Positions 27,331 through 55,820 of a stretch of 64,000 bases of DNA are shown piece after piece. The stretch lies in assembly GCA_964406505.1 (NCBI GenBank), contig CAYORX010000008.1, positions 859 through 64,858 of the forward strand, written 5' to 3'. How positions within the stretch are numbered: the first letter of the stretch is position 1; each line of letters opens with the position of its first letter. Source of the stretch: an uncultured Eubacteriales bacterium. Its GTDB lineage: Bacteria; Bacillota; Sulfobacillia; Fermentithermobacillales; Fermentithermobacillaceae. A program made the position numbers and the translations under genes. The notes under the pieces were generated by a model. It was given only the letters and a program-made list of their open reading frames with translations, did not search any database and was not told the DNA's origin.

Positions 27331-27446
27331 TTTTTCCACCTCAATTGCAGCCAATGATTATATGAATAAAGCGTCAACTTAAACAGAATTTGATAAAAAT
27401 ATCACTAATACTTTGAACGATTCAGATCGTGAATTACACAATGTTA

Positions 27447-34488: not shown

Positions 34489-35504
34489 GGCATGAAACCC
34501 CCCTCAACACTTTTGAGAAAATGAATAGTTAATTTACGCGCTGCCTCAAAATCCGATATGTACATAATTGAACAAGGGGTATGAATATATCGACATGGAA
34601 CCGATATTGATGCCACGGCGCAACCTGTCCCTGCTTGTTGTATCGCACCGGCATCATTGCTCCCGAAAGTTGACTCTCTGTATTGAAATGGAATGTCGTT
34701 GCCTTCGGCGAGTTTCACAAACTTTTCTACCATGCCACGGTTAGGTATAGAACCGCGATCCATCACGCTAATGACAGCACCCTGGCCAAGCCGAGTCACT
34801 TGATACTCTTTATCTGTACCGGGTATGTCAGCGCAAACCGTACCTTCAAGGGCTATACCTAGATCCGGCCGTATCGCGTAGGCCGCTACTTGCGCTCCAC
34901 GTAAACCCACTTCTTCTTGAACTGTAAACACGGCATAGAGTTGAAGATTCTGCCAGTCTTGCTTGATAATCTCGAACAAAAGGGCGCAACCTACACGATC
35001 GTCTAGTGCCTTAGCTTTGATTATGCCAGAACTAAGTTCTTCATACTGCGTGTCAAAAACTGCATAATCACCTAATTGTACTTTCGTCCCAGCCTGTTCC
35101 TGTGATTTAGCCCCAATATCGATCGATAGCCCATCGATAGGTATCACTTTAGTTCGCTCATCAGGTTTTTGTAGATGAATCGCTTTAGCCCCTATAACAC
35201 CAGGCACTTTCTTCGCACCTACAAGCACCCGCTTTGATACCAAGACCCTTGGATCAATACCGCCCACCGGTGCAAATCGGAGGAATCCATTTTTCTCTAT
35301 GTGAGTAATGATAAGCCCCACTTCATCCATATGGGCATCTACCAAAACTTTAGGACCTCGCGTACCCCTTTTTGCGATCACGTTACCTAACACATCGCAT
35401 TCGTAAGAAATGCCCAAAGATTCTAATTCTGCCATTATAGCTGTACGAATTTCATATTCGTTTCCAGACACTCCTGAAAGCGATGTAAGAGTTTTTATGT
35501 CCAT
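34485..35504 (-). CDS. M42-family aminopeptidase, copy 2
   Basis: The motifs are AHMDEVGLII, LDDRVGC and TVQEEVGLRGA. It overlaps both neighbouring genes. Confidence 0.88.
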   Translation of the reverse strand: MDIKTLTSLSGVSGNEYEIRTAIMAELESLGISYECDVLGNVIAKRGTRGPKVLVDAHMDEVGLIITHIEKNGFLRFAPVGGIDPRVLVSKRVLVGAKKVPGVIGAKAIHLQKPDERTKVIPIDGLSIDIGAKSQEQAGTKVQLGDYAVFDTQYEELSSGIIKAKALDDRVGCALLFEIIKQDWQNLQLYAVFTVQEEVGLRGAQVAAYAIRPDLGIALEGTVCADIPGTDKEYQVTRLGQGAVISVMDRGSIPNRGMVEKFVKLAEGNDIPFQYRESTFGSNDAGAIQQAGTGCAVASISVPCRYIHTPCSIMYISDFEAARKLTIHFLKSVEGGFMP

Positions 35505-36556
35505 ATCTTCAACCCCTTAACAAAACATGCATCAACCGATGCAATAAATCTAGCTAATAGCTTGCCAGACTTCTCTACGTCACCCAATGCAACGGTTTCG
35601 ACAGATGTATGCATATAACGAAGTGGAATAGAAACTAATCCTGTAGCCACACCTGACCCCGCAACTTGAATAGCCCATGCATCAGTGCCTGTGGCAGCTG
35701 GTGCAACTTCCTCTTGCACATCGATGCCCAGCTGTTTAGCTGCTTCCTTCAGCGCAAAATAAACCTTAGGATGAATGTTTCCGCCTTGAGCCAATGCAGG
35801 CCCTTTACCCATAGATGAAGTTCTCCATTCGGGAACCCCGGGAGTCTCGGCATGACATACGTCGATAGCGATACCAATATCAGGTTTAACTTTGTAAGAT
35901 GAAACAGCAGCCCCTCGTAAACCAACTTCTTCCTGAGTCGTAGCAATTGCAAAAACATCGGCATTTACTCTGTATCTTTTTAATTCATTAAGGCATATAA
36001 GAATAACCGCTATCCCTGCTCGGTCATCAAGCGACTTGCCCGAAAACACATCCCCCATCATCTTGCTAGGTTGTCGTTTAAAGGTAATAATATCGCCTAC
36101 ATTGATAAGATCACGCACTTCCTTTTCAGGCAGTCCAGTATCTATAAACAACTCTTCCATTTTGTAAGCCTTTTTGGCCTCTTCACGAGAAGTTAAATGA
36201 GGTGGTTTCACGCCAATAACTCCTGTCAAAGGCTTTTTGCCATACACTATTACTTCATGAGCAGGTAAAGTTCTCGGATCAACCCCACCCATTTGACTAA
36301 ACCTAAGAAATCCGCCTTCTTCAATTTTTGTGACAATAAGGCCTACTTCGTCCATATGGGCCGCTAACATTACAGACGGTCTGGGTCGGGATCCCTCACC
36401 ATGTTTAATCCCAACGATATTTCCAAGCGCATCAGTTTCAATTTCATTGACTAAAGGTGACATAGCGTCTTTAACCACGTCATAAATGTTCATAAACTCA
36501 AAACCAGATACTCCATGAGCTAAAGATGCGGTTGATAAAAATTTCAGTACATCCAA
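35495..36556 (-). CDS. M42-family aminopeptidase, copy 1
   Basis: The motifs are AHMDEVGLIV, LDDRAGI and TTQEEVGLRGA. Confidence 0.88.
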   Translation of the reverse strand: MDVLKFLSTASLAHGVSGFEFMNIYDVVKDAMSPLVNEIETDALGNIVGIKHGEGSRPRPSVMLAAHMDEVGLIVTKIEEGGFLRFSQMGGVDPRTLPAHEVIVYGKKPLTGVIGVKPPHLTSREEAKKAYKMEELFIDTGLPEKEVRDLINVGDIITFKRQPSKMMGDVFSGKSLDDRAGIAVILICLNELKRYRVNADVFAIATTQEEVGLRGAAVSSYKVKPDIGIAIDVCHAETPGVPEWRTSSMGKGPALAQGGNIHPKVYFALKEAAKQLGIDVQEEVAPAATGTDAWAIQVAGSGVATGLVSIPLRYMHTSVETVALGDVEKSGKLLARFIASVDACFVKGLKIWT

Positions 36557-41879: not shown

Positions 41880-42610
41880 TACCGCGTTTCTCCTCGTTGA
41901 AGCAGCCGCTCATACTTTTGCTTTAAACTTCGAAAATCCTCCCACACAGGCCGTTTTCTGCGCCTTTCATCTCGCAAGACTGCGGCCGGATGGAAGGTTA
42001 TCAGATAATGAATACCGTCTTTTTCAAACCATTTACCTCTGTCTCTTGTAACTCTTATATCCGGGTTAAGCAAGGTTTGAGCGGACAAGGCTCCCAACAA
42101 TACTATTATTTTAGGTTGAATTATTCTTATTTGGGCCCTCAGATTCGGCATACACGCCTCGACCTCTTTTGCGGTAGGTAACCTATTACCAGGTGGCCGG
42201 CATTTTACGATATTAGTAATAAATATTTCTTTCCTAGGAATATCGTGAGATTTGAGCATAAGATCTAATAATTGGCCCGCCCTGCCTACAAATGGTTCAC
42301 CGGTTTCATCCTCATTTTTACCGGGCCCCTCTCCTACAAACATTATATCGGCGGTAGGTTTACCATCTCCAAACACTACATTTTGAGCGCCTTTCCTCAA
42401 ATCACACAATGAGCATCTAAGCACAATCTGTTTTAATTTATCCAGGCCATTGATCCCCGCGAAATCATTGTCAGCATTTGCTTTACGGGGTTCGGTGTCG
42501 ACAATGTTCAATTCAAATTGCTGTGCAGACTGTTCCGACCGGGTTCCTGATTCTGATACGCGCCCAACATCAAACAAAGAATGCTGTACCATATTCAATT
42601 TATCCTTCAA
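41879..42610 (-). CDS. Family-4 uracil-DNA glycosylase with an N-terminal extension of about 70 aa
   Basis: The motifs are GEGPGKNEDETGEPFVGRAGQLL, NIVKCRPP and HPAAVLR. Confidence 0.85.
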   Translation of the reverse strand: MKDKLNMVQHSLFDVGRVSESGTRSEQSAQQFELNIVDTEPRKANADNDFAGINGLDKLKQIVLRCSLCDLRKGAQNVVFGDGKPTADIMFVGEGPGKNEDETGEPFVGRAGQLLDLMLKSHDIPRKEIFITNIVKCRPPGNRLPTAKEVEACMPNLRAQIRIIQPKIIVLLGALSAQTLLNPDIRVTRDRGKWFEKDGIHYLITFHPAAVLRDERRRKRPVWEDFRSLKQKYERLLQRGETR

Positions 42611-43577
42611 AAGGATCAGTCCCTTCAGAACTCGTTTCCTGTTTCAAACTTGCCATTCTTTTTTGTATAAGTTCCGGATATTGTTTCACCAACGCCTTGT
42701 TTCCATCTAAATGTTTTAAATAGTTATCAGCCAATTCAGGATCTAATCGCTTAAACGCATTGTAGATTTTTTCCCCCAATTTCACCGCTTCCTTACAATC
42801 CGGTTGACACGGGAAAAAATCCTTTGTGAAATAAGCAAAACGATTTATTTCTGAAGCGCTTTCTGCATGTTTGATCTGATTAGAGGCTCTCACTTCGGGA
42901 CTTAAAACTCCTGATTGCCGGTCGAAAACATATCGATCAATACAGCAAACTGGATATCCTAATATTTTGCCGGATTTCGTCAAAAATGAAGCGGTATGTT
43001 CTTCGGGAAAGGCACGAAGTGCTCCTGGTATAGAAGGATCAGGTCTTTTGGCGAATTCGTAACGAATATCTTTTCGAAGATCTTGAAGTTTCTCTAGTTC
43101 GTTTGCAATAGAATTATCTGTAAAAACGTAAAGTTCACGTATCGTAGGGCGTGACTCCAATTGTTTTTGGATTAAACCAAGTTTGTCGGCCCAATCGACA
43201 TATAGCTTGTATGAATTCGAGTTTTCAACAACGTTGCTATAGATATCCCTTAATACCTGAAGTCTAAACCGTATATCTCGAATTTTGCTTCTTTTTCGAA
43301 AACCAGCAACCCTGCTTTTAAGAAAATCGGTTAATGATTCACCGGGAAGTCGTTCACCGGCCATCTTTTGCCGAAACCTATCATCGATAGTAGCACCTAA
43401 TATAGCCGCGTCGGGTAGCTCGGCAGGTATTATTATCTGGGCAGCTCTTCGCGCTCCTAAAACAACGGGCAGAAAATCATCTAGTTTTGCCTTTAATGTT
43501 ATCACATGTTCATTTAGAAACTTTTGATATAACTGTTGATCCATAGCTTTTATAGGCGGTAAGACACCTACTTTCAA
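42600..43577 (-). CDS. Hypothetical protein with a GYPxCC ... PCxxxC cysteine motif
   Basis: This 325-aa soluble-looking protein has no family I can name with confidence. It carries ILGYPVCCIDRY and FFPCQPDCKEA, four Cys in two pairs. Its 3' end overlaps the UDG gene by 11 nt. Confidence 0.6.
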   Translation of the reverse strand: MKVGVLPPIKAMDQQLYQKFLNEHVITLKAKLDDFLPVVLGARRAAQIIIPAELPDAAILGATIDDRFRQKMAGERLPGESLTDFLKSRVAGFRKRSKIRDIRFRLQVLRDIYSNVVENSNSYKLYVDWADKLGLIQKQLESRPTIRELYVFTDNSIANELEKLQDLRKDIRYEFAKRPDPSIPGALRAFPEEHTASFLTKSGKILGYPVCCIDRYVFDRQSGVLSPEVRASNQIKHAESASEINRFAYFTKDFFPCQPDCKEAVKLGEKIYNAFKRLDPELADNYLKHLDGNKALVKQYPELIQKRMASLKQETSSEGTDPFEG

Positions 43578-43727: not shown

Positions 43728-43761
43728 TATCCAAATATAAAGAGAGGGGTTAACCCCTCTC
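43728..43761 (-). terminator. Rho-independent terminator after the A1 gene
   Basis: A perfect palindrome GAGAGGGG-TTAA-CCCCTCTC (43742..43761) is followed on the minus strand by TTTATATTTGG. Confidence 0.7.
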
Positions 43762-43786
43762 CTATTGCTTTACTACTAAATCGGTC

Positions 43787-44911
43787 TTAACCTTCTATCA
43801 TCTCTACGTTAGCCCGCGGCACAGTTACAATGCTACCATCTTCGAGTTTAGCACGTAAAATTCGTACCTTGGCTTCAGACTCGATCTGCTCGAGATGCGG
43901 CGGCAATTCAACTATCTCAGCCAGTGCTCCAAAATAAGGCTCTCGGATAATTCGAATGGGCGTTCCGGGCACAAGCCCTTTGGTAAGGTCCAACAGCTCA
44001 TCATCGCTAATTTCTGCCTCATACCCGGGCACGATAATTTCCGGACGCATTACCCCCGCTCGAATTTGCGTAGCTCCATTGATCGAAGCCTTAAACCCAT
44101 TAAGTTTCTTGAGTAGATTAAAAGTACGGTCGGCCATCCTCATTTTGCCGAAGCCTTCAGTAATTATTACGGTGACTGGAATATCTTCATGTCCTGTAAT
44201 AGCAACGCCTATATCAAAGCCGAGATATTCGATTAAATCGGTATCAATAATACCACCTGCGACGATCCCTTTAGCACCTACTTCTCCTGCTTTATTAATA
44301 GCATCGACCGTAACTAGCGAACCACCGACCAATATTTTACCTTTATCATCTTCTTTAATATGAGAAGCATCTAAAAGATCGTCGGGATCTTCTACTGCCA
44401 CCCTAATAATTCCTTGGGTTTCTCCACCGACTCCGAAGATACCCTGTATGAAAGCACCTTCGGTCTTTACTACTACCCCTTCATTGGGGATAACTTCTTC
44501 AACAACGCCGTCCACGTATGCATTAATCTCGATAGGAATGGGGGGTTCGCGCAAAGTAACCTGCCCTGTAACAGCAGAAATCATTTCAATGGTTCCGGCA
44601 GTAGGTGATTGTGCATTGTGTTTGATGAGGCCAAAAAATGCTCTGTATTCTGCTAAGGTTTCACCTTTTTCAACATAATCTCCTTCAGATTTTTGCATAA
44701 AGTCAACAATATCCGAAGGCTCTACGCCCAATATATTTGCTACATTAACTGTCTGTGGATCTCCAGGTATATCGGTTTTTGCTACAACTGTATCAGGAGA
44801 AACCGCCTGTCCCTTCTCAACCAATACTTCGCCGAGGATAGGAAGGCGGCGTTCTTTTGTAACCACCGCTTTTTCAGTAACCTTAAGCCCAGGTGTATAT
44901 GCATGTGCCAT
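43787..44911 (-). CDS. Partner protein A1 of the GlmL-like ATPase (unknown family; lipoyl-like hairpins + alpha/beta domain + KOW/SH3-like tail)
   Basis: The 374-aa product is paralogous to 47429..48787. Shared strings are RRLP..GEVLV, SINGATQIRAG..RPEIIVP, EPYFGA...IVE and VPRANVE. GGGAGGGAAGG lies 6 nt before the ATG, and the gene starts 16 nt after the B1 stop. Confidence 0.75.
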   Translation of the reverse strand: MAHAYTPGLKVTEKAVVTKERRLPILGEVLVEKGQAVSPDTVVAKTDIPGDPQTVNVANILGVEPSDIVDFMQKSEGDYVEKGETLAEYRAFFGLIKHNAQSPTAGTIEMISAVTGQVTLREPPIPIEINAYVDGVVEEVIPNEGVVVKTEGAFIQGIFGVGGETQGIIRVAVEDPDDLLDASHIKEDDKGKILVGGSLVTVDAINKAGEVGAKGIVAGGIIDTDLIEYLGFDIGVAITGHEDIPVTVIITEGFGKMRMADRTFNLLKKLNGFKASINGATQIRAGVMRPEIIVPGYEAEISDDELLDLTKGLVPGTPIRIIREPYFGALAEIVELPPHLEQIESEAKVRILRAKLEDGSIVTVPRANVEMIEG

Positions 44912-44927
44912 TTGTACCTTCCCTCCC

Positions 44928-46784
44928 CTATACCTGCACGTATTTCTTAAGTGATTCTTCAGGATACATACCCATAGCGATGAACCACTCTACTAGTTTC
45001 TTGTTGCGTTCTTCTACATTTTCTGGGAAAACGATTGGGCGGCCTCTACAGTCAATTAACACACCGACTACGCCACCGTTAATGGTTGTTTTCAGCTCAT
45101 GTCCGGGGCCTCTGCCTAAGTCGAATTGCCTAGCTGGTCGAGCTGTAACTTCAACCGTTTTATCTTCGGGTATTTTTATCAATTTTATGGAACCGAAAGG
45201 TACTGATTCTTCGATCGTTTCTCCGTCAACTGTAAGATTAACCTCAACACAAGGGGCTCCGAATTTTGCAGAACCGCTAGGCCCGACGGGGGCAATGGAT
45301 GTGCCAAGTTTGACTAAGCAATCTCGATCGAACACCTGCATAGATGCTTTCGGGTGAATTGACGCTAATATACCTAACTGCGGCATCATAAAGATCGAGT
45401 CTACCGCCAACATAGTATCTGCCTCAGGTTGAAAAGCATCTAAAAGCATCATAGCAGCCTGCGGCCGTCTTGGCGCGTGAGACAACACTCCGCCTGAACC
45501 GATTAGCATACCAAGATCGGTCATATCAATATAAGTATCACCGCTGCCAGTTTGCTCAAAAGTATCACCAATCGTCCTTTGTTTGTGCACACCCCTAAGC
45601 CCAACCGCTAAACTCTTGTGATGCTCAAAAGCAAGACGCAGTGCTTCTCTGGCGATAGCTTGCTCAATTATCAATTCATCAAGGGTTTGAGGTATGGTTG
45701 TTGGACGAATCATCTTATTTCGTATCCTGTTTCTAAGAATTCCTTCTTCTATGAAGAATGGAATCCATCTCATGATTCTCTCCACACCAGCCTCAAGGAG
45801 CACGTTACAAATAGAATAGCTCATGCCTAAATTGGCCGAAACGGTCCTGTTAAAATGTTCCTCAAATACAGAAAAAACGTCCGTAGTTGCTCCACCCGCG
45901 TCTACCCCTATAACGCTCATATTATATTCCTTGGAAGCTGTCTGCATACCGACACCAACAGCTCCGGGGGTCGGCATAATCGGAACCGGACTCCATTTCA
46001 TTAATTTGTTGTAACCCGGTGCTTGTGCCATAACGTGTTCCATAAACAAATTATGAATTTCTTCCCTAGCAGGCCCAAGCACTTCTGCTTCAAGAACAGG
46101 CCTTAAATTGTCAACTATTCTTAGGTCGGTTTTTTCGCCAAGAATATCGCCAATGTGCTTTCTGGCAAATTTGTTTCCGGCATAAATGATGGGCAACCTA
46201 TAACCGATACCTAACCTCGGCTTTGGTTCGGCCGCTGAAATCAATTCGCCGATCTCGGCCACGTGAGTAATTGTACCGCCGTCGATCCCTCCAGAAAGAA
46301 GGATCATATCTGGCCTAAGATGCCTAATTCGTTCAATTTTTTCGTGAGGCCTGCGGCCATCATCTACGGAAATTACGTCCATTACAATTGCACCGGCTCC
46401 AAGTGCTGCTCTAGCCGCAGATTCCGCAGTCATAGTTTTAACCACGCCTGCTACCATCATCTGAAGCCCGCCGCCAGCTGAAGAAGTAGACATATAAATG
46501 TCCACGCCTGAGCCGTCTGGCTGCGAAGGAGTGATCACTCCTTCATCATTCAGAAATTTTCTTCCCGTAAGCTCCTCGATTTCTCTCATAGCATTTCTAG
46601 CGCCCATTGTAACATCTTCAAAAGGCGCTTCAACTGTTGTCGGGGCTTCTCCCCGTACGATTAAGCGGTACTCATCATCAACCTTTTCAATAAGAATGGC
46701 TTTAGTTGTTGTAGAACCACAATCAGTAGCCAGAACAGACTTGATTTCTCTGTCCGGCTTAATCTCATTAGAATGTTCCTGCAC
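44928..46784 (-). CDS. GlmL/MutL-family (glutamate-mutase-accessory-like) ASKHA actin-fold ATPase, long form, copy B1
   Basis: The 618-aa product has the phosphate-1 motif DCGSTTTKAILIEK, plus STSSAGGGLQMMVAG, DVISVDDGR, GVDAGGATTDVFS and GSGGVLSHAPRR. It carries an extra beta-rich C-terminal tail relative to my recollection of GlmL length. Confidence 0.75.
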   Translation of the reverse strand: MQEHSNEIKPDREIKSVLATDCGSTTTKAILIEKVDDEYRLIVRGEAPTTVEAPFEDVTMGARNAMREIEELTGRKFLNDEGVITPSQPDGSGVDIYMSTSSAGGGLQMMVAGVVKTMTAESAARAALGAGAIVMDVISVDDGRRPHEKIERIRHLRPDMILLSGGIDGGTITHVAEIGELISAAEPKPRLGIGYRLPIIYAGNKFARKHIGDILGEKTDLRIVDNLRPVLEAEVLGPAREEIHNLFMEHVMAQAPGYNKLMKWSPVPIMPTPGAVGVGMQTASKEYNMSVIGVDAGGATTDVFSVFEEHFNRTVSANLGMSYSICNVLLEAGVERIMRWIPFFIEEGILRNRIRNKMIRPTTIPQTLDELIIEQAIAREALRLAFEHHKSLAVGLRGVHKQRTIGDTFEQTGSGDTYIDMTDLGMLIGSGGVLSHAPRRPQAAMMLLDAFQPEADTMLAVDSIFMMPQLGILASIHPKASMQVFDRDCLVKLGTSIAPVGPSGSAKFGAPCVEVNLTVDGETIEESVPFGSIKLIKIPEDKTVEVTARPARQFDLGRGPGHELKTTINGGVVGVLIDCRGRPIVFPENVEERNKKLVEWFIAMGMYPEESLKKYVQV

Positions 46785-46879
46785 TAACTTTTCCCCTCCC
46801 TCACTGCCGCCATCAATACATGAAATAATACCACATGGTTGAGTACGACATTAACTATATAAACTCCTCCTATGTTACA

Positions 46880-47287
46880 CTATTTTTTACTTTTATCCGA
46901 GGCCCTGTGATTATCTGATTCCATTTTCAACGCATCACCCATCACAGAGTCTTTTACTTTCTTCTCTCGTTCTGCCTTTTTTAGAGCTCTGCGCTTTCTT
47001 TTTTCTTCTTCTTCCTCCATAGCGATAGCTTCAATTCTTTGAATTAAAAGTTCTACATTTTCTCTATTATCAAAAAAGTAGGCGTAATCCTCAAAAGTCC
47101 GAAAGAACACTCCGACTATGGGCGCAAAAAAATGCATGGCCTGTCCGCCTATATAACTTAGCGGCTTGTGCATTTCAAGAAAGAAAATCGCAGGCACCAT
47201 CATACCGTATTGTTTAATTCTGTTTGCAATAGCTTCGATTAGCTCATCTCGCCGCTTATTATCAATCGGTTCTCGAAAATTAATCAT
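46880..47287 (-). CDS. Small hypothetical protein (hydrophobic core segment + Glu/Lys-rich tail)
   Basis: The 135-aa product contains MMVPAIFFLEMHKPLSYIGGQAMHFFAPIVGVFF followed by EEEEEKRKRRALKKAEREKK. A strong SD (GGTAGGAGGGGAG) lies 9 nt upstream of the ATG. Confidence 0.65.
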   Translation of the reverse strand: MINFREPIDNKRRDELIEAIANRIKQYGMMVPAIFFLEMHKPLSYIGGQAMHFFAPIVGVFFRTFEDYAYFFDNRENVELLIQRIEAIAMEEEEEKRKRRALKKAEREKKVKDSVMGDALKMESDNHRASDKSKK

Positions 47288-47428
47288 TTATTCAATCTCC
47301 CCTCCTACCTTCGGTGATAGCTTTGTCTCTATTTTACAATATTTCAGGCAATTACTTGCAAGCATTTAATTCCAGAAAAATATGGTACATCGGTTGTCGA
47401 CGCTATCTTACCGCAAAATACAGGGTCT

Positions 47429-48787
47429 TCAAAGCAATTCAACGTTAGCTCTAGGAACATAAACTTCGTTGTCGTCAGAAATCTGAACTTTAACCACAGG
47501 AACTTTTGCTTCGGTTTCAATAGCTACCGGTTCTCGTTTAATTTCAACAATTTTCCCCACGGCACCAAAATAAGGTTCATTAATTACACGAACATCTTTT
47601 CCGACGCGCAAGTCAACATCTAGATCGGTTTCAATTTCGATATCACCTTCATAATCAGGGAACGGAACAATTATTTCAGGCCTAATAGCACCTGCTCTAA
47701 TCTGTGTAGCCCCGTTTATAGAAGCTAATCTTCCTTCGAGATCAGCCAAAGTCGCCCATACTTCCTTTCGCATAGATAGGTGCCCAAAACCTTCCATCAA
47801 AATCACGGTCATATTGATATCTTCCTGCCCCGTTATACCCACGCCGAGTTTAACACCCAACGATTGAGTTAAATTAAAATAGTTAACTGTTCCGGTAACT
47901 ACCCCCCTTACACCGACTTCCAGTGCCTTTGATAACGCCTCATTGGTTGCGAAGGCTCCCCCAACTATAATTTTATCTTTACAGTCTGGTGTAATCATAT
48001 CCGCTTCCAGTATTTCATCCGGCCCTGAGGTAACCATTTTCAGTTCGCCGTACACCTCGCGCCCTAATCCAAACACCCCGTTTAACCGAATCCCAGGCGT
48101 ATCTACAATGCATCCGCGATTTTCGATAACTTCAGACACTGTACCTTGCACATATCCTCGCACAACAACTTCTCTAAAAGGTCTAGATATGGTGACTTTA
48201 CCCGTTTTACAGCAAACTTTGGAGATAATACCCGACACAGGAGCTACCGCCGTAGTGGTAAAAAAGGCTTGCGCCTCCCCTTTTTTAGCTACCATTTGGC
48301 CTCGTTTGATCTCTTGCCCTACTTGCCTCAACATATGCTTAGGCAATTCATGCGGTCTACATTTTATCTCAAAGGCAACATCAAAGGTCACCGGGGGTTC
48401 TTCCCTACCAAATTCTTCCCGAATAGTTATTCTTCCGGAACGAACAGAAACATCTTCTATTATCCCATCAGTAGGTGAAGTAATTTCTTTCCTACCATAT
48501 ATTCCCTCGTCTGCCCGTGCAATGGCGTCTTGGGTTTTAACTCTGTCTCCGATATTTTTAAGCATACAATCTTTTAATTGCGAAGGCTTGACGCCGAGCA
48601 ACCGTGCACCTGGAATTACCCAGGGAATACCCGGCCTGAGAGCAATTTTAGCAACTGGTGTATCAGGATAAACAACATCACCTATCTTTACCAAAACTTC
48701 TCCAGGCAAGGGCAACCTTCTCACTTTTCTTATGAGTTCAATCTGATTTTTAGTACTATCTGAAAAGGAATCTGAAAAGACCGCCAC
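47429..48787 (-). CDS. Partner protein A2 (paralog of A1 with an extra N-terminal unit)
   Basis: The 452-aa product has a GTG start 7 nt after GGGGAG. That start lies 32 nt inside the 3' end of B2, indicating translational coupling. It shares the C-terminal blocks with A1. Confidence 0.75.
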   Translation of the reverse strand: MAVFSDSFSDSTKNQIELIRKVRRLPLPGEVLVKIGDVVYPDTPVAKIALRPGIPWVIPGARLLGVKPSQLKDCMLKNIGDRVKTQDAIARADEGIYGRKEITSPTDGIIEDVSVRSGRITIREEFGREEPPVTFDVAFEIKCRPHELPKHMLRQVGQEIKRGQMVAKKGEAQAFFTTTAVAPVSGIISKVCCKTGKVTISRPFREVVVRGYVQGTVSEVIENRGCIVDTPGIRLNGVFGLGREVYGELKMVTSGPDEILEADMITPDCKDKIIVGGAFATNEALSKALEVGVRGVVTGTVNYFNLTQSLGVKLGVGITGQEDINMTVILMEGFGHLSMRKEVWATLADLEGRLASINGATQIRAGAIRPEIIVPFPDYEGDIEIETDLDVDLRVGKDVRVINEPYFGAVGKIVEIKREPVAIETEAKVPVVKVQISDDNEVYVPRANVELL

Positions 48788-50651
48788 GTTTTTTCTCCCC
48801 TTTTATCTCTGTTTGTTTAACCGGATACTTTTCTTGTAATTCAGAAATAAGATCTGCCGGGTACACTTTCATAGATTCCAACCATGAAGTAACTTTAGCT
48901 ACACGCTCAAATTCCGTTTCAGGCATGTTTATAGGCCTACCTCTGCCATCTAAAATGATTCCTACAAGTCCCCCATGAAGCTGCTTGTCTACAGTGTTTC
49001 CCTTACCGGCACCTATGTCTACACGTCCGCTAGCAGGTTGAATAGTGCACGATGCAATTTCGCCCACCCCTAAGGGAACGACACTAATTTCCCCGCTATC
49101 GATCTTATGTTCCAAAATTTGGCCATCAGGCATGGTGATGCTAATCGAAGCTAACTTACCGCTACGGCTTGGTTGACCAACAGGTGCCACCACCGTACCC
49201 AATCTCACTAAACAGTCTTTTTCAAACACCTCCGCCGCAATTTCCGGATACACGGATGAGAGCACGCCTAAGTGAGGCATCATAAAAATTGAGTCTACGG
49301 CTAACTGGGTCACTCCTTCGGGCTGAAATGCATCCATAAGCATTAAGGCTGCCTGCTCCCGCCTAGGTGCGTGTGATAAAACACCACCTGAACCTACTAG
49401 CATATCAAGATGCATCATATTGATAATATCCCGGCCCGATGCTTTAGCTACCCCGGCATCGCGACCAAATCCAACTACCTCTTCTTCAACTTTTTTAGCG
49501 AGGCTTTTATGATGTTCGAAACTGAGCCTTAATGCTTCCCTAGCAAGCGCCTGTTCAATTACGAGGTGGTACAAAGTTTGAGGTATTGTAGTGGGTCTAA
49601 CCATTTTATTGGCGATCCAATCAGAAATTTGCGACTGATCCATACTAAACGGTACCCACCGCAAAATATGTTCAAAGCCTGCTTCTTCAAGTACATTACA
49701 AATGGAATAGCTCATACCTAGATTTGCAGAAACAGTTCGGGTAAAAGTATCCTCGAAATACGAAAATACGTCGGTAGTAGCCCCTCCGATGTCAACACCA
49801 ATTATCGTTTCATTTTGTTGTTCAGCAAGCACTCTTATTAAAGTTCCTACGGCACCTGGCGTTGGCATAATGGTGGTATCCACTAGTTCCATAAGATCAC
49901 CGTATCCAGGTGCTTGGGCCATAACGTGATTCATAAATAGATCATGTATCGCTTCTCTGGCGGGACCAAGATTTTCGATATCGTGGCGCGGTCTTAAGTT
50001 TTGGGCGAGATGAACATCCATCGTTTCACCACAAATTTCGATTACGATATCTTGAGCATCAACATTTCCCGCATAAATCAAGGGCAATTTATAAGTAGCA
50101 CCGAAGCGAGGTTGGGGATTTGCTTGTTTAATAATCTCAGCAATTAGAGCGATATAAGCAACAGAACCACCATCAACCCCACCTGACACCAAAAGTATAT
50201 CTGGCCGCAATTCTGTTATACGTGTAATCTGTTCCGACTGAGATCTTCCATCGTCAACGGAAATAACGTCTAACACTACTGCACCCGCCCCAAGGGCCGC
50301 CCTATGAGCTGAACTTGCACTTATGGTATTTACCAAACCGGCAACCATCATTTGAAGCCCGCCCCCGGCAGAAGATGTAGAAACATACATATCTACACCT
50401 TTTTTACCTTGTCTCGGCCTAATTAAACTTCCTGACTCGTCAAGGATGGGCCTATCTACAAGTTCTTCTATACGCCTTACAGCATTCCTTACACCTATCA
50501 TGACATTTTCCCATGGGACCTCTACCGTTGTCGGCATTTCTCCACGTGTAGTAAGCCTGTACTCATCGCCACACTTTTCAATAAGAATAGCCTTAGTAGT
50601 GGTGGACCCAACGTCTGTAGCTAAAATGCATTGTATCTCTTTTTTACCCAA
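48756..50651 (-). CDS. GlmL/MutL-family ASKHA ATPase, long form, copy B2
   Basis: The 631-aa product is collinear with B1: DVGSTTTKAILIEK, STSSAGGGLQMMVAG, DVISVDDGR, GVDIGGATTDVFS, RTVSANLGMSYSICNVLEEAG, GSGGVLSHAPRR and AVDSIFMMPHLG. Confidence 0.75.
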   Translation of the reverse strand: MGKKEIQCILATDVGSTTTKAILIEKCGDEYRLTTRGEMPTTVEVPWENVMIGVRNAVRRIEELVDRPILDESGSLIRPRQGKKGVDMYVSTSSAGGGLQMMVAGLVNTISASSAHRAALGAGAVVLDVISVDDGRSQSEQITRITELRPDILLVSGGVDGGSVAYIALIAEIIKQANPQPRFGATYKLPLIYAGNVDAQDIVIEICGETMDVHLAQNLRPRHDIENLGPAREAIHDLFMNHVMAQAPGYGDLMELVDTTIMPTPGAVGTLIRVLAEQQNETIIGVDIGGATTDVFSYFEDTFTRTVSANLGMSYSICNVLEEAGFEHILRWVPFSMDQSQISDWIANKMVRPTTIPQTLYHLVIEQALAREALRLSFEHHKSLAKKVEEEVVGFGRDAGVAKASGRDIINMMHLDMLVGSGGVLSHAPRREQAALMLMDAFQPEGVTQLAVDSIFMMPHLGVLSSVYPEIAAEVFEKDCLVRLGTVVAPVGQPSRSGKLASISITMPDGQILEHKIDSGEISVVPLGVGEIASCTIQPASGRVDIGAGKGNTVDKQLHGGLVGIILDGRGRPINMPETEFERVAKVTSWLESMKVYPADLISELQEKYPVKQTEIKGEKKRGGLFRFLFR

Positions 50652-50751
50652 AACAGACCCCTCCTTGTCCTCCCTATCAACAATTAGAATTAAAAACTAT
50701 GAAAGCGTTGAATTTGTAGTGTATTTGCGAGGCTGTGGAACAATGAAACTG

Positions 50752-51417
50752 CTAGGATTTTTTTCGTGAGCGAAATTTACGTATACGCTCAAACGCCGAT
50801 CGCAGTCCCCCTCTATCTTCTTTCTTAGCATCTTCTACAGAATATGCTTCGTGTAGGGGCTTTAATTTCGATTCTACTATTTTAAGTATCTCGTCTTTAT
50901 TGGAGCCATCTTCTTTATAGTAAAGAAACAACCCCTCCCGCAACCGACCTCGTAAAGTTCGCGTATCATGTGTTAAAAATACACCATCATCAAACTCTCT
51001 ATAAGCTAAAAATCTGTCCCAACGGCGAATATCCCTTGCCATAAATGTTTTGTAGCCTACTGTTTCCTCGGTCAAAATAAATTTTACTGGGAAAAGATAC
51101 GGGGCTAAACGATTAGTAAAAATAATGGTAATAATCGCTACAAAAAAGAATTGTGGTACCGCCCAATAAGCCATGCCCATACTCGCCAAAAGGGAAGCTA
51201 CTACTACAACTGCAACTAACGGTCGTTTGGGCAGAAGCCAATTTTCCCAACTGTATAGTTCAACATCTTCCTTTACTTCCTCTTTCTTGTCAACCGGACT
51301 TTCTTCTTCAATCTCGGTTTCTGGTTTTTCGTCAGGTACTATTCGTCTTAGGTATGAAGGTCTCCCGGTGCTCGACCGAGTATTCCCCGCTTTAAACTTT
51401 CTGTTTTCTTGGGACAT
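50752..51417 (-). CDS. Hypothetical two-TM membrane protein with a basic/acidic N-tail and a soluble C-domain
   Basis: A hydrophobic pair (LVAVVVVASLLASMGMAYWAV / FFFVAIITIIFTN) is followed by FPVKFILTEETVGYKTF...DGVFLTH...GLFLYY. GAGGAGG lies 6 nt before the ATG at 51417. The ORF-track start is 51450. Confidence 0.6.
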   Translation of the reverse strand: MSQENRKFKAGNTRSSTGRPSYLRRIVPDEKPETEIEEESPVDKKEEVKEDVELYSWENWLLPKRPLVAVVVVASLLASMGMAYWAVPQFFFVAIITIIFTNRLAPYLFPVKFILTEETVGYKTFMARDIRRWDRFLAYREFDDGVFLTHDTRTLRGRLREGLFLYYKEDGSNKDEILKIVESKLKPLHEAYSVEDAKKEDRGGLRSAFERIRKFRSRKKS

Positions 51418-51546
51418 TGCAAACCTCCTCAAACGCTGCCTATAGAGCATTAAACTTTTTGCAAAAAGGTTTTGTATGCCATTCGACAGTTTTTACTTTT
51501 ATCCTGCTGGTAATGGCATTTCTACAAATAGCCATGAGTTTTGTGT

Positions 51547-52680
51547 TTATTTGAAAGTTTGTCGACTTTTCAAGATATCGATAACCTTTTGTACTGGTAA
51601 ACCTATCCTCAAATTATTATCCCGACCCTCCATGGTTTTAGCAGCAAATAGTGAATTAAGTATCGCTTCTTCGGTAGATTCAACAGAAGCAGCAAAAATA
51701 TATCCCAATTCTCGGGAACCATCGCGCAACCGTTTCTCTGTGACAAAAGAAGAAGCGCTTTTATGGTTTATACGATTAGCAGTAGAAAAAGACACTACAA
51801 AGTCACCGCTTCCATTTGAAAAGACTGAGCCTACACGCGCAAGCCCACCTTGGCATCTTTTGGCGATCCTCAAAAGCTGTCTATCTGAAACCGGCGCATC
51901 TGTAGCTAGCACAACCACTATAGAACCTGGTAAACTTTCAGGTTGTGTTTCAAGAAATTCTTTAAGTTGTTTCCCTACGGGTACTCCAGATATCAAAAGG
52001 TTTTCCATTTTACCGAAATTCGACATTACCAATACACCAACTGTCCACGTTTCAGCACCAACTTCTATACGTCTGGATGCTGTACCTATGCCTCCCTTGA
52101 ATCCAAAACACGACATTCCGGTGCCGCCTCCTACGTTTCCTTCATCCACCGGACCAGAAGCAGCAGCATCTAACGCAGAAAACACGTGGTGTTTACCTAC
52201 ATGCCTACCTCTAATATCGTTCAAAAAACCATCATTACACTCTAACACCAAAGGATTCACTGTGCCAGTATCTACACCGATTTCGGGATTAGAGTCAAGC
52301 ATATACTCGCAAAGAGCATCCCATGCCCGACCAACACTTAAAGTATTGGTTAAAATGATAGGAGTCTCAATATTCCCTAGCTCTTGTACCTGGGCAATGC
52401 CTGTTGCTTTGCCAAATCCATTAATGACATAAATTGCGCCGGGAACTTTTTCTTTGAACAAATTGCCCGGGTGAGGCTTAATGGCTGTTACACCGGTTCT
52501 AACAGGTCCTTCGCCTTGAACGAGAGTTCCGCTACCTTTTATTATAGTAGAGTGCCCTACGAGAACACCCGGCACATCAGTAATAGCGTTAAAACGCCCT
52601 GTGGGAAGATGTCCGATACAAATGCCGTAGCCCCTACACCGTAGATTTGAACCATTTTTCGATTTAAACTGAGTTTCCAT
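51547..52680 (-). CDS. DmpA/S58 (P1) family aminopeptidase-like Ntn hydrolase
   Basis: The motifs are NAITDVPGVLVGH, PIILTNTLSVG and GGGTGMSCFGFKGGIGTASR. The opposite-strand ORF 51476..52432 is an antisense artefact. Confidence 0.75.
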   Translation of the reverse strand: METQFKSKNGSNLRCRGYGICIGHLPTGRFNAITDVPGVLVGHSTIIKGSGTLVQGEGPVRTGVTAIKPHPGNLFKEKVPGAIYVINGFGKATGIAQVQELGNIETPIILTNTLSVGRAWDALCEYMLDSNPEIGVDTGTVNPLVLECNDGFLNDIRGRHVGKHHVFSALDAAASGPVDEGNVGGGTGMSCFGFKGGIGTASRRIEVGAETWTVGVLVMSNFGKMENLLISGVPVGKQLKEFLETQPESLPGSIVVVLATDAPVSDRQLLRIAKRCQGGLARVGSVFSNGSGDFVVSFSTANRINHKSASSFVTEKRLRDGSRELGYIFAASVESTEEAILNSLFAAKTMEGRDNNLRIGLPVQKVIDILKSRQTFK

Positions 52681-52702
52681 AAATTAAAACCCCCGGTTGA
52701 CC

Positions 52703-53404
52703 TTAAAATGCCTTAGATGCTTCCACAAGAGCCTGGTAAGGTTTAATAAAAATTGGATCGTGTTTCCACATAGCTTCAGGATGCCATTGCAATAAAAGCA
52801 CAAAATTCTTTCTCGCTTCAACTACCTCAGCAATACCGTCTAGCGCCCTGCCTGTAACAGTTAAGCCATCCCCAGGTTCTCTTACGGACTGATGATGATA
52901 TGAATTGACCGAAAGTTTGCCGGTTCCAAATATCTCAAAAGCTAAAGAATCATCATCTAGCACAACTTCGTGCGTACCATACCATTTGGGAGCCTCTTGT
53001 CTGTGTTTCATGGCACCACCGATTTGAGAAGATATATCTTGTACCAGTGTCCCCCCCGCAGCAACGTTAACGATTTGGCATCCTCTGCATAACCCTAAAA
53101 TCGGCAATCCCGATTTAAGGGATTTTTCGGCGAGAAAAAGTTCTAATTCATCAAGACGTGGATTTATCTTTCCGAGTTTAGGCAAAGGACGCTCTCTATA
53201 CCTGGCGGGATCGACATCTGCTCCGCCCGGGAAAACGATGCCATCTAACTTCGATAAGATCAATTCTCCATGGCTTTTTTCTACCATGGGTATTAATAAA
53301 GGTATTCCACCTGCTTCAGCCACCGATTCAACATAAGCATGGGGCGTAATTGAAGACATTCTATCTTCGTTCCAACTAGAAACGATACCAATTAGTGGTT
53401 TCAT
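52703..53404 (-). CDS. Class-I glutamine amidotransferase-like gamma-glutamyl hydrolase (peptidase C26/PuuD family)
   Basis: The motifs are GADVDPARY, the nucleophile elbow GLCRGCQIVN, and SYHHQ and LLQWHPE. Confidence 0.8.
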   Translation of the reverse strand: MKPLIGIVSSWNEDRMSSITPHAYVESVAEAGGIPLLIPMVEKSHGELILSKLDGIVFPGGADVDPARYRERPLPKLGKINPRLDELELFLAEKSLKSGLPILGLCRGCQIVNVAAGGTLVQDISSQIGGAMKHRQEAPKWYGTHEVVLDDDSLAFEIFGTGKLSVNSYHHQSVREPGDGLTVTGRALDGIAEVVEARKNFVLLLQWHPEAMWKHDPIFIKPYQALVEASKAF

Positions 53405-53458: not shown

Positions 53459-53809
53459 TTAAAGAGATTTGACCCCTAAAGAAATCTTCAGCGCTTCATC
53501 CACTTGCGACATAATGTTATCTTCGATCTTCGCCACTTTTTCTTTTAGACGTTTTTTATCTATAGTCCTTATTTGCTCGAGCAAAATCACTGAATCCTTT
53601 TCAAGATTTGAAATATCGGCAGGAAGTTCCACATGTGTGGGTAATCTTGCCTTTTGAATTTGAGAAGTAATCGCAGAAATAATTACCGTGGGGCTATACT
53701 TGTTCCCTATATCGTTTTGAATGATCAAAACAGGCCTAAATCCTCCTTGTTCTGAACCAAGAACAGGGTTTAAATCCGCGTAATAAATGTCGCCTCTGTA
53801 GGGCACCAA
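53459..53809 (-). CDS. mazF: MazF/PemK(EndoA)-type toxin endoribonuclease
   Basis: The sequence [58 protein letters not shown] is near-collinear with Bacillus EndoA/NdoA. Confidence 0.9.
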
Positions 53810-54166
53810 TCAAGATTTCCTCCATTTGGTCGGTACTTCATTTGGGGAAACATTTTTACTAGCATGAGCACAATATTCATCTGCGAAAAATAATTTTGGC
53901 GAACAATCGAAGTCACACGCTAATTCTTCAGCCAAAATTCTGTTGATTTCCGCCATTTCCAAGTAGCCGTTTCTCATTTGCTCTCGCATGGTCTCCTTTT
54001 TTACCTTTTGAATGTAAAAACAACATGCTTCACGTATAAATAATGAGCGAGATTTGTTCGTTTCTACTACTATATCGTCAATACCTTCTAATATGTCTTC
54101 AGGAAACCCTACCGACACACGTTTGATTTTCGACAAGGTAAGTTCGGCCCCCTTAGATTCGGCCAT
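53810..54166 (-). CDS. RHH/CopG-type antitoxin (EndoAI/MazE-like)
   Basis: The motif RVSVGFPEDILEGIDDIVVETNKSRSLFIREA is present. The gene abuts mazF. I prefer the ATG at 54166 because the longer ORF-track start would overlap nnr. Confidence 0.8.
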   Translation of the reverse strand: MAESKGAELTLSKIKRVSVGFPEDILEGIDDIVVETNKSRSLFIREACCFYIQKVKKETMREQMRNGYLEMAEINRILAEELACDFDCSPKLFFADEYCAHASKNVSPNEVPTKWRKS

Positions 54167-54176
54167 CGGCCTTACG

Positions 54177-55820
54177 TTAATATCGGTTAAACTTTTGTTC
54201 AATTTGGGCTCGAGCCCTAGGCAAGTTATCGGCAATATCGCCAGCTAACAATCCATAAGATCCTTTGCGCTCAAACGCAATTTCTCCTGCAATTCCATGC
54301 CAAAAAACACCTAGCCAAGAGCTTGCGTAAGTAGAAAGTCCTTGGGCGACGAGAGCTGCAATAACTCCAGTAAGAACATCACCCGAACCTGCTGTAGCCA
54401 TGCCAGGACCGCCTGACGTGTTTATACATAATCGACCTTGAGGACTCGCCGTGCAAGTTCCGGCCCCTTTTAAACATACAATACTATTTGATAAGCGTGC
54501 CACCTCTTTAGCATAACCCGGCCTGTCTTTTTCCAGTTCCTTTGTACTGACGCCAGTAAGCATTGACATTTCGCCCGGGTGGGGCGTTAGAATAAAGTTT
54601 CCCTTTATATCCGCAAGATATGACAGGCCTCCAAGCTGCTTCAACGCGAAAAACGCGTCAGCATCTACTATAAACGCTTTTTTCGACGCAAAAGACAAGA
54701 TCTCCTTCAAAAACTGTGTTTGAAAATATCCCCTGCCCCAACCTGGGCCAATCACTACCGAATTCGCTTTTTCAATATGACGTTCAATCAAACTAATACA
54801 TTCCGGTTTGGGATAAAACATCCCTGCAGAACCATAAGGGATCACCATTATTTCTGGCAAAGAAGAAGCACATATATTATAAATCTCGTTTGGGCAAAAC
54901 AAAGTAACCGTGCCAGCACCGGCTCTCAAAGCGCTTTTCGCAGCCAAAACCGCAGCACCGGACATACCGACCGAACCTGCAATCACAACCACATGCCCGG
55001 CATGCCCTTTATGATAATCGGCCTTTCTCTTAGGCAAAAGACTTGCCGCTTGTTCAATCGATGAGATTTGTGCGAAAACTTCTTTTATGTGCGCCGATCG
55101 GTTATCATTGGTACTTTTACAGCAATATTCCTCCATCAACTTAGGAGGAAATGCGAGATGTTCAACAAAAATCTTTCCAGAATACATCCGCCCCGGATAA
55201 CTAAACAAACCCACTTTGGCAAAACCCATAGTAACTGTAAGATCTGCGCGAATGCATACGGAATGGGCATATCCCGTATCTGCCGAAACTCCTGAGGGAA
55301 CGTCGCAAGCTACCAATAAAGCTTTTTGGGAATTTGCCCACCTAATCGCAACGTCAATGGGAAATCGTGGGCTCCCTTTTGCTCCTATTCCCAACAAAGC
55401 ATCGATTATTAAATCGGGATTCCCTAGATGCTCGGTAACTTCGTGGGGTTCCATGAATTCGCAACAATATATATTCACAGGATAACGTTTAAGCATATTC
55501 CAATTGATAGATGCAGCGTTACGCAGCTGGGATTTGCGACCGAAAAACCCAACTTTCACGCGATAACCTTTTGACGCTAAATGCCGAGCAGCGCAAAAAC
55601 CGTCGCCACCATTTTGCCCCGGACCTGCCAAAACCGCAATAGTACCGCATTTTGAATTGTAAGATGAATGCGGTATTTTGCGCATCTGACCGCTTAATAG
55701 CTTTTCGCATTGTTCAGCGAGTGCCCTTCCGGCATTTTCCATAAGGATCAAGTTAGATATATCCATGTCTTGAGCTAAAGCATCTAGTCGCAGCATTTGG
55801 GCACCTGACACAATAAACAT
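54177..55820 (-). CDS. nnr: Bifunctional NAD(P)H-hydrate repair enzyme (epimerase/ADP-dependent dehydratase)
   Basis: The YjeF_N motif GPGQNGGDG is present. The C-terminal carbohydrate-kinase motifs are KGHAGHVVVIAGS and GSGDVLTG. Confidence 0.88.
   Translation of the reverse strand: MFIVSGAQMLRLDALAQDMDISNLILMENAGRALAEQCEKLLSGQMRKIPHSSYNSKCGTIAVLAGPGQNGGDGFCAARHLASKGYRVKVGFFGRKSQLRNAASINWNMLKRYPVNIYCCEFMEPHEVTEHLGNPDLIIDALLGIGAKGSPRFPIDVAIRWANSQKALLVACDVPSGVSADTGYAHSVCIRADLTVTMGFAKVGLFSYPGRMYSGKIFVEHLAFPPKLMEEYCCKSTNDNRSAHIKEVFAQISSIEQAASLLPKRKADYHKGHAGHVVVIAGSVGMSGAAVLAAKSALRAGAGTVTLFCPNEIYNICASSLPEIMVIPYGSAGMFYPKPECISLIERHIEKANSVVIGPGWGRGYFQTQFLKEILSFASKKAFIVDADAFFALKQLGGLSYLADIKGNFILTPHPGEMSMLTGVSTKELEKDRPGYAKEVARLSNSIVCLKGAGTCTASPQGRLCINTSGGPGMATAGSGDVLTGVIAALVAQGLSTYASSWLGVFWHGIAGEIAFERKGSYGLLAGDIADNLPRARAQIEQKFNRY

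Follow-up and report, generated by a model that had tools for sequence, protein, structure and literature searches.

A conserved module of GlmL/MutL-like ATPases and their partner proteins in a Bacillota genome and across bacterial and archaeal phyla

The 64-kb stretch of contig CAYORX010000008.1 analyzed here (the window) comes from a Bacillota genome and consists of housekeeping DNA. It carries a module of six genes, all on the minus strand: two ATPases, B1 and B2, their partner proteins, A1 and A2, a small protein, S, and a two-transmembrane protein, c6. By sequence comparison, the B proteins are GlmL/MutL ASKHA (actin-fold) ATPases of a long form, which make up a branch of their own that is extremely conserved and has intact nucleotide-binding motifs. 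The module is not a glutamate-mutase accessory pair; rather, a GlmL-like ASKHA accessory ATPase sits here in a wholly different, conserved system of two to eight genes. We propose that B and A act as an ATP-driven, membrane-associated complex, recruited by S, the two-transmembrane protein and the tail of B2, with a set of membrane proteins that includes DUF6754, where encoded, as its likely client or effector, a reading to which we give about an even chance. Related loci (labeled L) were surveyed in more than 15 phyla including Archaea (about 170 loci, 2.45 Mb), and gene linkage was counted in an A-centered set of 71 evaluable loci on one-genome-per-species contigs and in a B-centered set of 72 evaluable metagenome loci.

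B and the GlmL/MutL family

B1 (44928..46784, 618 amino acids) and B2 (48756..50651, 631 amino acids) are the collinear paralogs that a first-pass annotation of this DNA had recognized: they share 55% identity over 605 residues (E = 0), and all the shared strings quoted there are present. Both match the Pfam MutL model PF13941 from end to end (profile positions 1-450 of 450), B1 with residues 17-489 (E = 2.9e-121, 405.8 bits) and B2 with residues 9-480 (E = 5.1e-122, 408.3 bits), the cut-off being 27 bits. The scores against three curated models stay below their cut-offs: 211 and 225 bits for B1 and B2 against NF040745, GlmL (cut-off 475), 198 and 219 bits against NF040744, the ornithine protein Or-4 (cut-off 600), and 147 and 171 bits against TIGR01319 (cut-off 204). 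The first-pass assignment to the GlmL/MutL family thus holds for Pfam MutL and fails for TIGR01319. The GlmL models stop at about residues 486-489 of B, leaving the last ~130 residues outside every one of them and outside the Pfam model. An AlphaFold2 model of a B homolog predicts a beta-rich domain and one helix for this C-terminal part, in agreement with the beta-rich extension first noticed in both proteins, and B1 can be laid out as an ATPase part (~17-489) followed by the beta-rich domain plus helix (~490-618). A sequence search of the PDB with B1 gave no useful match.

Conservation of B is extreme across both domains of life that were sampled. B1 is 54-66% identical to B proteins of Bacillota, FCB-group phyla, Planctomycetota, Synergistia and Bathyarchaeia/Thermoproteota, and in an alignment of 18 diverse proteins from Bacteria and Archaea the column identity averages 61% and some 150 positions do not vary. 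Invariant in all 18 are the ASKHA phosphate-1 motif DxGSTTTK (D21-x-G-S-T-T-T-K28), the phosphate-2 motif GGATTD (G297-G-A-T-T301) and the adenosine motif GSGGxLSHAP (G431-G-x-L-S-H-A-P438).

A rival explanation is that B-A works as a chaperone in the manner of GlmL, DdrAB or EutA and reactivates a B12-dependent or other radical enzyme whose gene lies outside the window. In its favor, B belongs to Pfam MutL, its homologs carry the public name 'glutamate mutase L', and the one functional account found of GlmL/MutL regards it as the chaperone that reactivates glutamate mutase, by analogy with the diol dehydratase reactivase (PMC4682846). However, no mutase accompanies the module. As had been stated for the window at the outset, its 64 kb contain no B12-binding or mutase gene, whether by Pfam on the open reading frames not identified by eye, by a six-frame scan for the B12-binding motif DxHxxG..SxL..GG, by tblastn with the real GlmS, GlmE and Mal of Peptoclostridium acidaminophilum, or by Pfam annotation of the syntenic region in relatives. 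Nor was GlmS, GlmE, Mal or the B12-binding motif ever found near the module in the ~170 loci surveyed. The genuine GlmL of P. acidaminophilum (L171), a protein of 461 amino acids, is encoded between glmS and glmE. It has the same ASKHA core as B, matched by the Pfam model end to end in B at E ~1e-121, and the same nucleotide-binding motifs, but the two are only 24-30% identical, in an alignment confined to residues ~14-488, and B has the ~130 extra C-terminal residues. B also differs in its partners, which are A, S and the transmembrane protein, it is never beside glmS, glmE or genes for other B12 enzymes, it scores under all curated GlmL-family cut-offs, and the conserved neighbors of its module are membrane proteins. 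With architecture, partner and setting all different, we consider a reactivase role quite improbable.

The names given to these proteins in public records point elsewhere. 'Glutamate mutase L', 'methylaspartate mutase' and 'GlmL-related ornithine degradation protein' are attached to B proteins and B-A fusions in NCBI records of Marinimicrobia and Planctomycetota (P0147, P0271-P0313, P0324, P0327, P0356 and P0369), and probably represent an over-propagated annotation error. Across thousands of genomes and metagenomes such labels distort metabolic reconstructions, wrongly suggesting that Marinimicrobia, Planctomycetota, Bathyarchaeia and others ferment glutamate or ornithine by B12-dependent routes.

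Protein A and its pairing with B

A1 (43787..44911, 374 amino acids) and A2 (47429..48787, 452 amino acids) are a second paralog pair, as first described, with 42% identity over 326 residues (E = 5e-76). The description of A as unrecognized also stands, since neither Pfam nor NCBIfam gives an assignment above threshold, only weak matches to Biotin_lipoyl, RnfC_N and KOW. The label 'orphan' does not: at 90% identity the A family falls into at least 8000 clusters, at 50% identity it has 2605 representatives (532 with E <= 1e-30), and all are annotated 'hypothetical' with the exception of one JGI record that names a homolog NusG. An AlphaFold2 model of A1 (mean predicted local distance difference test, pLDDT, 87.7) has three parts, a barrel-sandwich hybrid (~11-130), an alpha/beta middle domain (~131-300) and a KOW/SH3-like barrel (~315-374); relative to A1, A2 has an extra, partly duplicated N-terminal barrel-sandwich hybrid segment. 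Most of the invariant residues fall in the middle domain, within the motifs QGIFGVGGE, TGxE, TEGFG and GATQIRAGxxRPE, which in A1 read QGIFGVGGE, ITGHED, TEGFG and NGATQIRAGVMRPE. Foldseek found no full-length structural analog of the A1 model, and a PDB profile search with A gave no useful match beyond the domain level. The domain-level analogs are the KOW domain of NusG/Spt5, domain II of Thermotoga maritima NusG and membrane-fusion protein, with a weak resemblance of the middle domain to RraA in the Foldseek search.

Several known identities were considered for A and rejected. A shares the KOW barrel and barrel-sandwich hybrid with NusG/Spt5, with the N-terminal domains of RnfC/NqrA and with membrane-fusion proteins, and nothing more: it lacks an NGN domain, Fe-S and flavin domains, a conserved biotin/lipoyl lysine and a signal peptide. 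As a NusG/Spt5 protein it fails because KOW is matched only in A2, below threshold (14.5 bits vs 22.3), with no NGN match. As a biotinyl or lipoyl carrier it scores 18.2 and 14.6 bits against Biotin_lipoyl (cut-off 22.1) and has no conserved attachment lysine, the barrel-sandwich domain having no lysine among its invariant or >=90% conserved columns. As an RnfC/NqrA protein it scores 16.1 and 23.5 bits against RnfC_N (cut-off 25.6) and 13.5 bits against TIGR01945 (cut-off 246); A has no invariant or near-invariant cysteine, and a genuine RnfC is encoded elsewhere in the window (25990-27354). The histidine of ITGHED, which might have marked a phosphohistidine swivel domain, is not conserved in a diverse alignment, and a HyuB-type subunit is not indicated, with no Hydantoinase_B match in Pfam or NCBIfam.

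The pairing of A with B is apparent in the window and across lineages. The stop codon of B1 (TAG, 44930-44928) is followed by GGGAGGGAAGG (44927-44917) and the A1 start codon (ATG, 44911), leaving a gap of 16 nucleotides. A2 starts at a GTG (48787) behind GGGGAG (48800-48795), 32 nucleotides inside B2, which ends at 48756, so that its Shine-Dalgarno site and start codon sit within the coding sequence of the B2 tail. Both arrangements are as the first-pass annotation gave them, and B and A are translationally coupled in the window. Elsewhere, 46 of the 71 A-centered genome loci have B immediately upstream of A. Among the 72 metagenome loci, A is no more than 300 nucleotides from B in 47 and no more than 4.3 kb away in 58. 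Natural B-A fusions of ~990-1005 amino acids form at least 44 clusters, with Marinimicrobia and Planctomycetota among the named sources. The AlphaFold2 model of one such fusion is compact, with only a short disordered linker (pLDDT 81.3, predicted template modeling score, pTM, 0.81), which suggests that the B and A halves pack against each other; we infer this contact from the pTM and the fusions only. The view of B and A as a working pair, held from the start, is thus upheld by adjacency in most loci and by natural fusions.

A minority of loci weighs against so close a partnership. B and A are unlinked in 25 of 71 A-centered and 14 of 72 B-centered loci, with A-only examples in Poribacteria, WOR-3 and Stahlbacteria. 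Where the two are unlinked, each stands among housekeeping genes without a substitute partner. We take A to be the obligate partner of B.

An ATPase with a second subunit could also be a soluble ATP-dependent enzyme of the hydantoinase, oxoprolinase or acetone-carboxylase type, in which B activates a small substrate, A binds or transforms it, the membrane set, where present, acts as the matching transporter, and the substrate could derive from an amino acid or from glycine. Foldseek relates the B part to ASKHA proteins with probability 1.0, and the nearest solved folds are acetophenone carboxylase, N-methylhydantoinase, acetone carboxylase and caprolactamase (5l9w_B, 9h03_A, 5svc_B and 6yra_A), whose subunits likewise form heteromers with a second subunit; Hsp70s, glycerol kinase and PilM (rank 47) come after these. 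The Pfam Hydantoinase_A model is matched just over its cut-off (23.9 bits for B1 and 25.7 for B2 vs 22.9), A has a series of invariant polar residues in its middle domain (Q156, E164, T239, E242, E252, T281, Q282, R284, R289 and E291), and the neighboring genes are often those of glycine cleavage, peptidases, a racemase or an aminotransferase. However, the template modeling scores (TM-scores) are low (0.2-0.3), and the match to Hydantoinase_A is limited to ~40-48 residues around the phosphate-2 motif that the families have in common (profile positions 62-108 of 291), so B is not a full hydantoinase member. The likeness to the hydantoinase/carboxylase group is that of a generic ASKHA core; A has a different set of folds and resembles neither HyuB-type subunits nor any family of enzymes. 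A soluble enzyme would also leave S, the transmembrane protein and the membrane-targeting tails unexplained, and cross-domain conservation this high is unusual for a peripheral catabolic enzyme. We regard this alternative, the strongest of the rivals, as rather unlikely.

The second pair and the membrane components

In a neighbor-joining tree, B2 and its orthologs (from L001, L005, L006, L011 and L013) form their own clade, apart from the B1-type proteins. An A2-type gene always follows a B2-type gene, and such pairs occur only in some Bacillota and in Bacillota-like unassigned metagenome contigs. Since the B2 clade is separate in the tree and B2-A2 is confined in this way, B1-A1 is the ortholog of the universal pair and B2-A2 an old Bacillota paralog. 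By the tree, the tandem duplication described at first is thus an ancient paralogy and no recent copy.

The same results bear on the model put forward in the first-pass annotation, in which the two pairs, (B-A)x2, make up a machine on their own, perhaps as one hetero-oligomer, with no other component. The window lineage and L011, L013, L023, L091, L094 and L095 do have both pairs conserved together, intact and coupled, and the window has no DUF6754 set near the module. However, most lineages have a single pair, so that (B-A)x2 is not the basic unit; S and the transmembrane protein are conserved alongside and the window keeps both; and L011 has both pairs with the membrane set directly upstream. 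The unit conserved across phyla is transmembrane protein-S-B-A, often with the membrane set, instead of two components working alone. The four genes originally listed are confirmed as members, and the two others, S and the gene at 50752-51450, had been overlooked. We consider a machine made of the two pairs and nothing else improbable.

The clearest feature of B2 is its C-terminal tail, KKRGGLFRFLFR (48759..48794), which is basic and hydrophobic. True B2 proteins all end in KKRGGLF(G/R)(L/F)F(R)R or GGFLSRLFRR. A tail of this kind is found in 12 of the 15 loci matched best by B2, the other three being one partial mis-hit and two variant tails, and in none of 135 B1-type proteins. Basic-hydrophobic C-terminal tails are what attaches MinD and FtsA to the membrane, and the window's own MinD ends in SFWAKLLHLFKAE. 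Like MinD and FtsA, B2 would be a cytoplasmic ATPase with a short tail of this kind, and we describe the tail as MinD-like and putatively membrane-targeting, although B and MinD are unrelated proteins. About 10 of 97 S proteins have an aromatic-basic tail that resembles that of B2 (L009, L011, L016, L017, L019, L029, L065, L097, L112, L135 and L162), for example GLFPWIKR, GIFSWLKFPKKK, GWRRWLPF, PFWKRFVRKGGR and KPWWRFW. It looks as if a membrane anchor had moved between subunits in different lineages.

In the window, S (46880..47287, 135 amino acids) is encoded between A2 and B1, and c6 (50752..51450, 232 amino acids) is the first gene of the conserved module. A gene for S precedes B in 35 of 46 loci of the genome set and in 51 of 72 of the metagenome set, in taxa that range from Bathyarchaeia to Bacillota. 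The protein has a conserved hydrophobic or amphipathic core (..PAIFFLE..KPLSY.GGQ...F..P..) and a Lys/Glu-rich tail, with no family match in Pfam or NCBIfam. The hydropathy of c6 indicates a hydrophobic stretch at ~71-120, with two predicted transmembrane helices, followed by a cytoplasmic domain. Pfam and NCBIfam gave no match for c6; genes for its homologs immediately precede S-B-A in Bacillota, Eisenbacteria, Zixibacteria, Synergistia and Planctomycetota, and a two-transmembrane protein often precedes S across the surveyed loci.

In many phyla the S-B-A cluster extends into four integral membrane proteins, DUF6754 and three others. This membrane set accompanies the module in Planctomycetota, Marinimicrobia, Zixibacteria, Eisenbacteria, Synergistia, Bathyarchaeia and the Bacillota relatives L009 and L011. 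The set (DUF6754, c5, c7 and c3) is present in one to three tandem copies by a single S-B-A, with repeats in L063, L084, L109, L110, L128 and L158, an arrangement reminiscent of substrate-specific modules that share one energizing unit. DUF6754 itself has at least 7500 clusters, all hypothetical, and is the sole match of the membrane-set proteins in NCBIfam or Pfam, the other three families being without a model. PDB searches with the c4, c7, c5 and c3 profiles returned no sequence relatives, and hhalign detected no homology between c4 and c7 or between c5 and c3. Within the searchable library we found no paper on DUF6754, PF20539, PF13941 or TIGR01319, and neither a characterized member of the system nor a solved structure of the module proteins was found.

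Taken together, these components suggest how the module may work. B and A would form a stable cytoplasmic complex, in which ATP binding and hydrolysis by B drive conformational work that is passed on through A, much as in the chaperone-like relatives GlmL, DdrA, EutA and Hsp70. This work would take place at the cytoplasmic face of the membrane, to which S, the transmembrane protein and, in the window lineage, the B2 tail could recruit B-A. Where it is encoded, the four-protein DUF6754 complex would be the likely client or effector, for example through energized transport or remodeling of the complex. The comparison with DdrAB/PduGH, EutA and Hsp70 is by analogy, as actin-fold ATPases that do conformational work on a protein partner: B-A resembles DdrA/DdrB in its two-subunit organization, and B has its ATPase core, beta-rich domain and helix in an order reminiscent of the nucleotide-binding domain, substrate-binding beta domain and lid of Hsp70. 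In contrast to DdrAB/PduGH and EutA, B-A has no client enzyme encoded nearby and gives low Foldseek TM-scores, and A has no detectable sequence relationship to DdrB/PduH.

Against this proposal, genes of the DUF6754 set are missing locally from the window and from L001-L008, its closest relatives; the membrane set is found without B-A in three loci (L089, one labeled Firmicutes and one labeled Chloroflexota); and the MinD-like nature of the tails rests on their sequence character. Since the set stands alone in those three loci, its linkage to B-A is frequent and not obligatory. A fuller version is that S-B-A is a cytoplasmic actin-fold motor, in place of an ABC, AAA+ or P-type ATPase, that docks onto a four-protein DUF6754 complex and energizes transport or another membrane process, a class of membrane machine not recognized before and present in more than 15 phyla, with B2-A2 as a second, membrane-tethered pair and the whole possibly feeding glycine or amino-acid catabolism; this is possible, and we are more inclined to doubt it than to expect it. 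If the DUF6754 link is true, no membrane machine with an actin-fold ATPase as its driver would have been known before this one. In any case, several large families of unassigned function (A, S, DUF6754 and three unnamed membrane families) gain partners and a testable cellular location.

Two further explanations were weighed. B could be a cytomotive, polymer-forming actin-like protein that A regulates and the tails or S anchor to the membrane. Extreme cross-domain conservation is seen in cytoskeletal proteins, the tails resemble those of MinD and FtsA, and the context is one of housekeeping genes, with mreBCD and minCD in the window, though not adjacent to the module. The nearest folds of B are non-polymerizing ASKHA enzymes and Hsp70, however, with PilM only at rank 47, and the GlmL/hydantoinase branch has no known polymer former (PMC5597319), which makes a filament highly improbable. 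The layout of an ATPase and a partner without a family assignment is also superficially like that of defense pairs, and the module could be an anti-phage system or the cargo of a mobile element. PADLOC matched none of seven proteins; plasmid searches found no plasmid carrying A, and B matched only genuine GlmL genes there; the synteny is a stable, housekeeping one, and conservation is very high and not rapidly diversifying. To this last explanation we attach almost no credence.

Genes around the module

An intrinsic terminator closes the module downstream of A1, as had been reported at about this position: a hairpin at 43740..43763 on the minus strand with a 10-bp stem, 6 GC pairs and a 4-nucleotide loop, followed by the T-run TATATTT. 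The open reading frames of the module have the boundaries given in the first-pass annotation. Beyond the terminator, in a separate transcription unit, lies a gene for a DUF483-like protein (42600..43577, minus strand; PF04467, E 6.7e-7) with the cysteine motif GYPxCC...FFPCxPxC. This gene adjoins A1 in L001-L010, is also seen in L022, and stands between the membrane set and B in the Bathyarchaeia locus L083; its product may be a further accessory component of the module. Nucleotide composition is uniform along the window, and the window A1 is 83-85% identical to A1 of L005 and L006 (Candidatus Fermentithermobacillaceae). Read from their translations, and partly from Pfam, the other genes of the window include murB, gatCAB, ligA, pcrA, minCD, mreBCD, rnf, rpoN, iscSU, tsaBDE, glmM, cdaA and genes for M42 peptidases.

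Glycine-cleavage genes recur near the module. Such genes (gcvT, gcvH, gcvPA and gcvPB) are no more than 10 kb away from the module, or from a lone DUF6754 set, in 33 loci examined, not counting L172 (L014, L025, L027, L030, L046, L053, L054, L065, L070, L078-L082, L087/L088, L100-L102, L108, L111, L114, L117, L120, L130, L132, L137, L145, L149, L153, L162, L165 and L167); in L172, gcvTHP is 6 kb from a stand-alone membrane set. The arrangements vary. In Eisenbacteria, Fermentibacteraceae and unassigned bacterial metagenome-assembled genomes, gcvT-H-PA-PB is directly upstream of the module; in Planctomycetota, the gcvP genes are divergent from it; and in L153, gcvT is downstream of A. With at least four arrangements across distant phyla, this linkage is far more than chance adjacency would give. 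There is no gcv gene in the window. Rfam detected no riboswitch in the window or in 13 module loci, and in L172 it places a glycine riboswitch before gcvT, where it does not control the membrane set.

Peptidase genes are a second recurrent neighbor. Directly upstream of the module in the window (51547-53404, minus strand) are genes for a DmpA-type S58 aminopeptidase and a C26 gamma-glutamyl peptidase, a pair conserved in relatives and in L016, L017, L022 and L023, and three M42 peptidases are encoded further downstream of the module (33487-36556, minus strand). That glycine-cleavage and peptidase genes are found beside the module time and again is a loose hint of a link with amino-acid metabolism.

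Three other loci of the window deserve mention. On the plus strand, a gene for an XPB/ERCC3-type helicase (ERCC3_RAD25_C and ResIII domains) is followed by one for a second protein that shares its Helicase_C_3 domain (9000-12295), an XPB pair of archaeal/eukaryotic style in a Bacillota genome. Between the peptidase genes and an NAD(P)HX repair gene is a MazF/PemK-type toxin gene (53459-54235, minus strand), the small open reading frame upstream of which probably encodes its antitoxin. Finally, a gene next to those for a TPR protein and rpoN (28935-29795, minus strand) encodes a 286-residue protein that joins an N-terminal P-loop-like GSSGTGKS motif to a C-terminal Asp23 domain, an unusual fusion.

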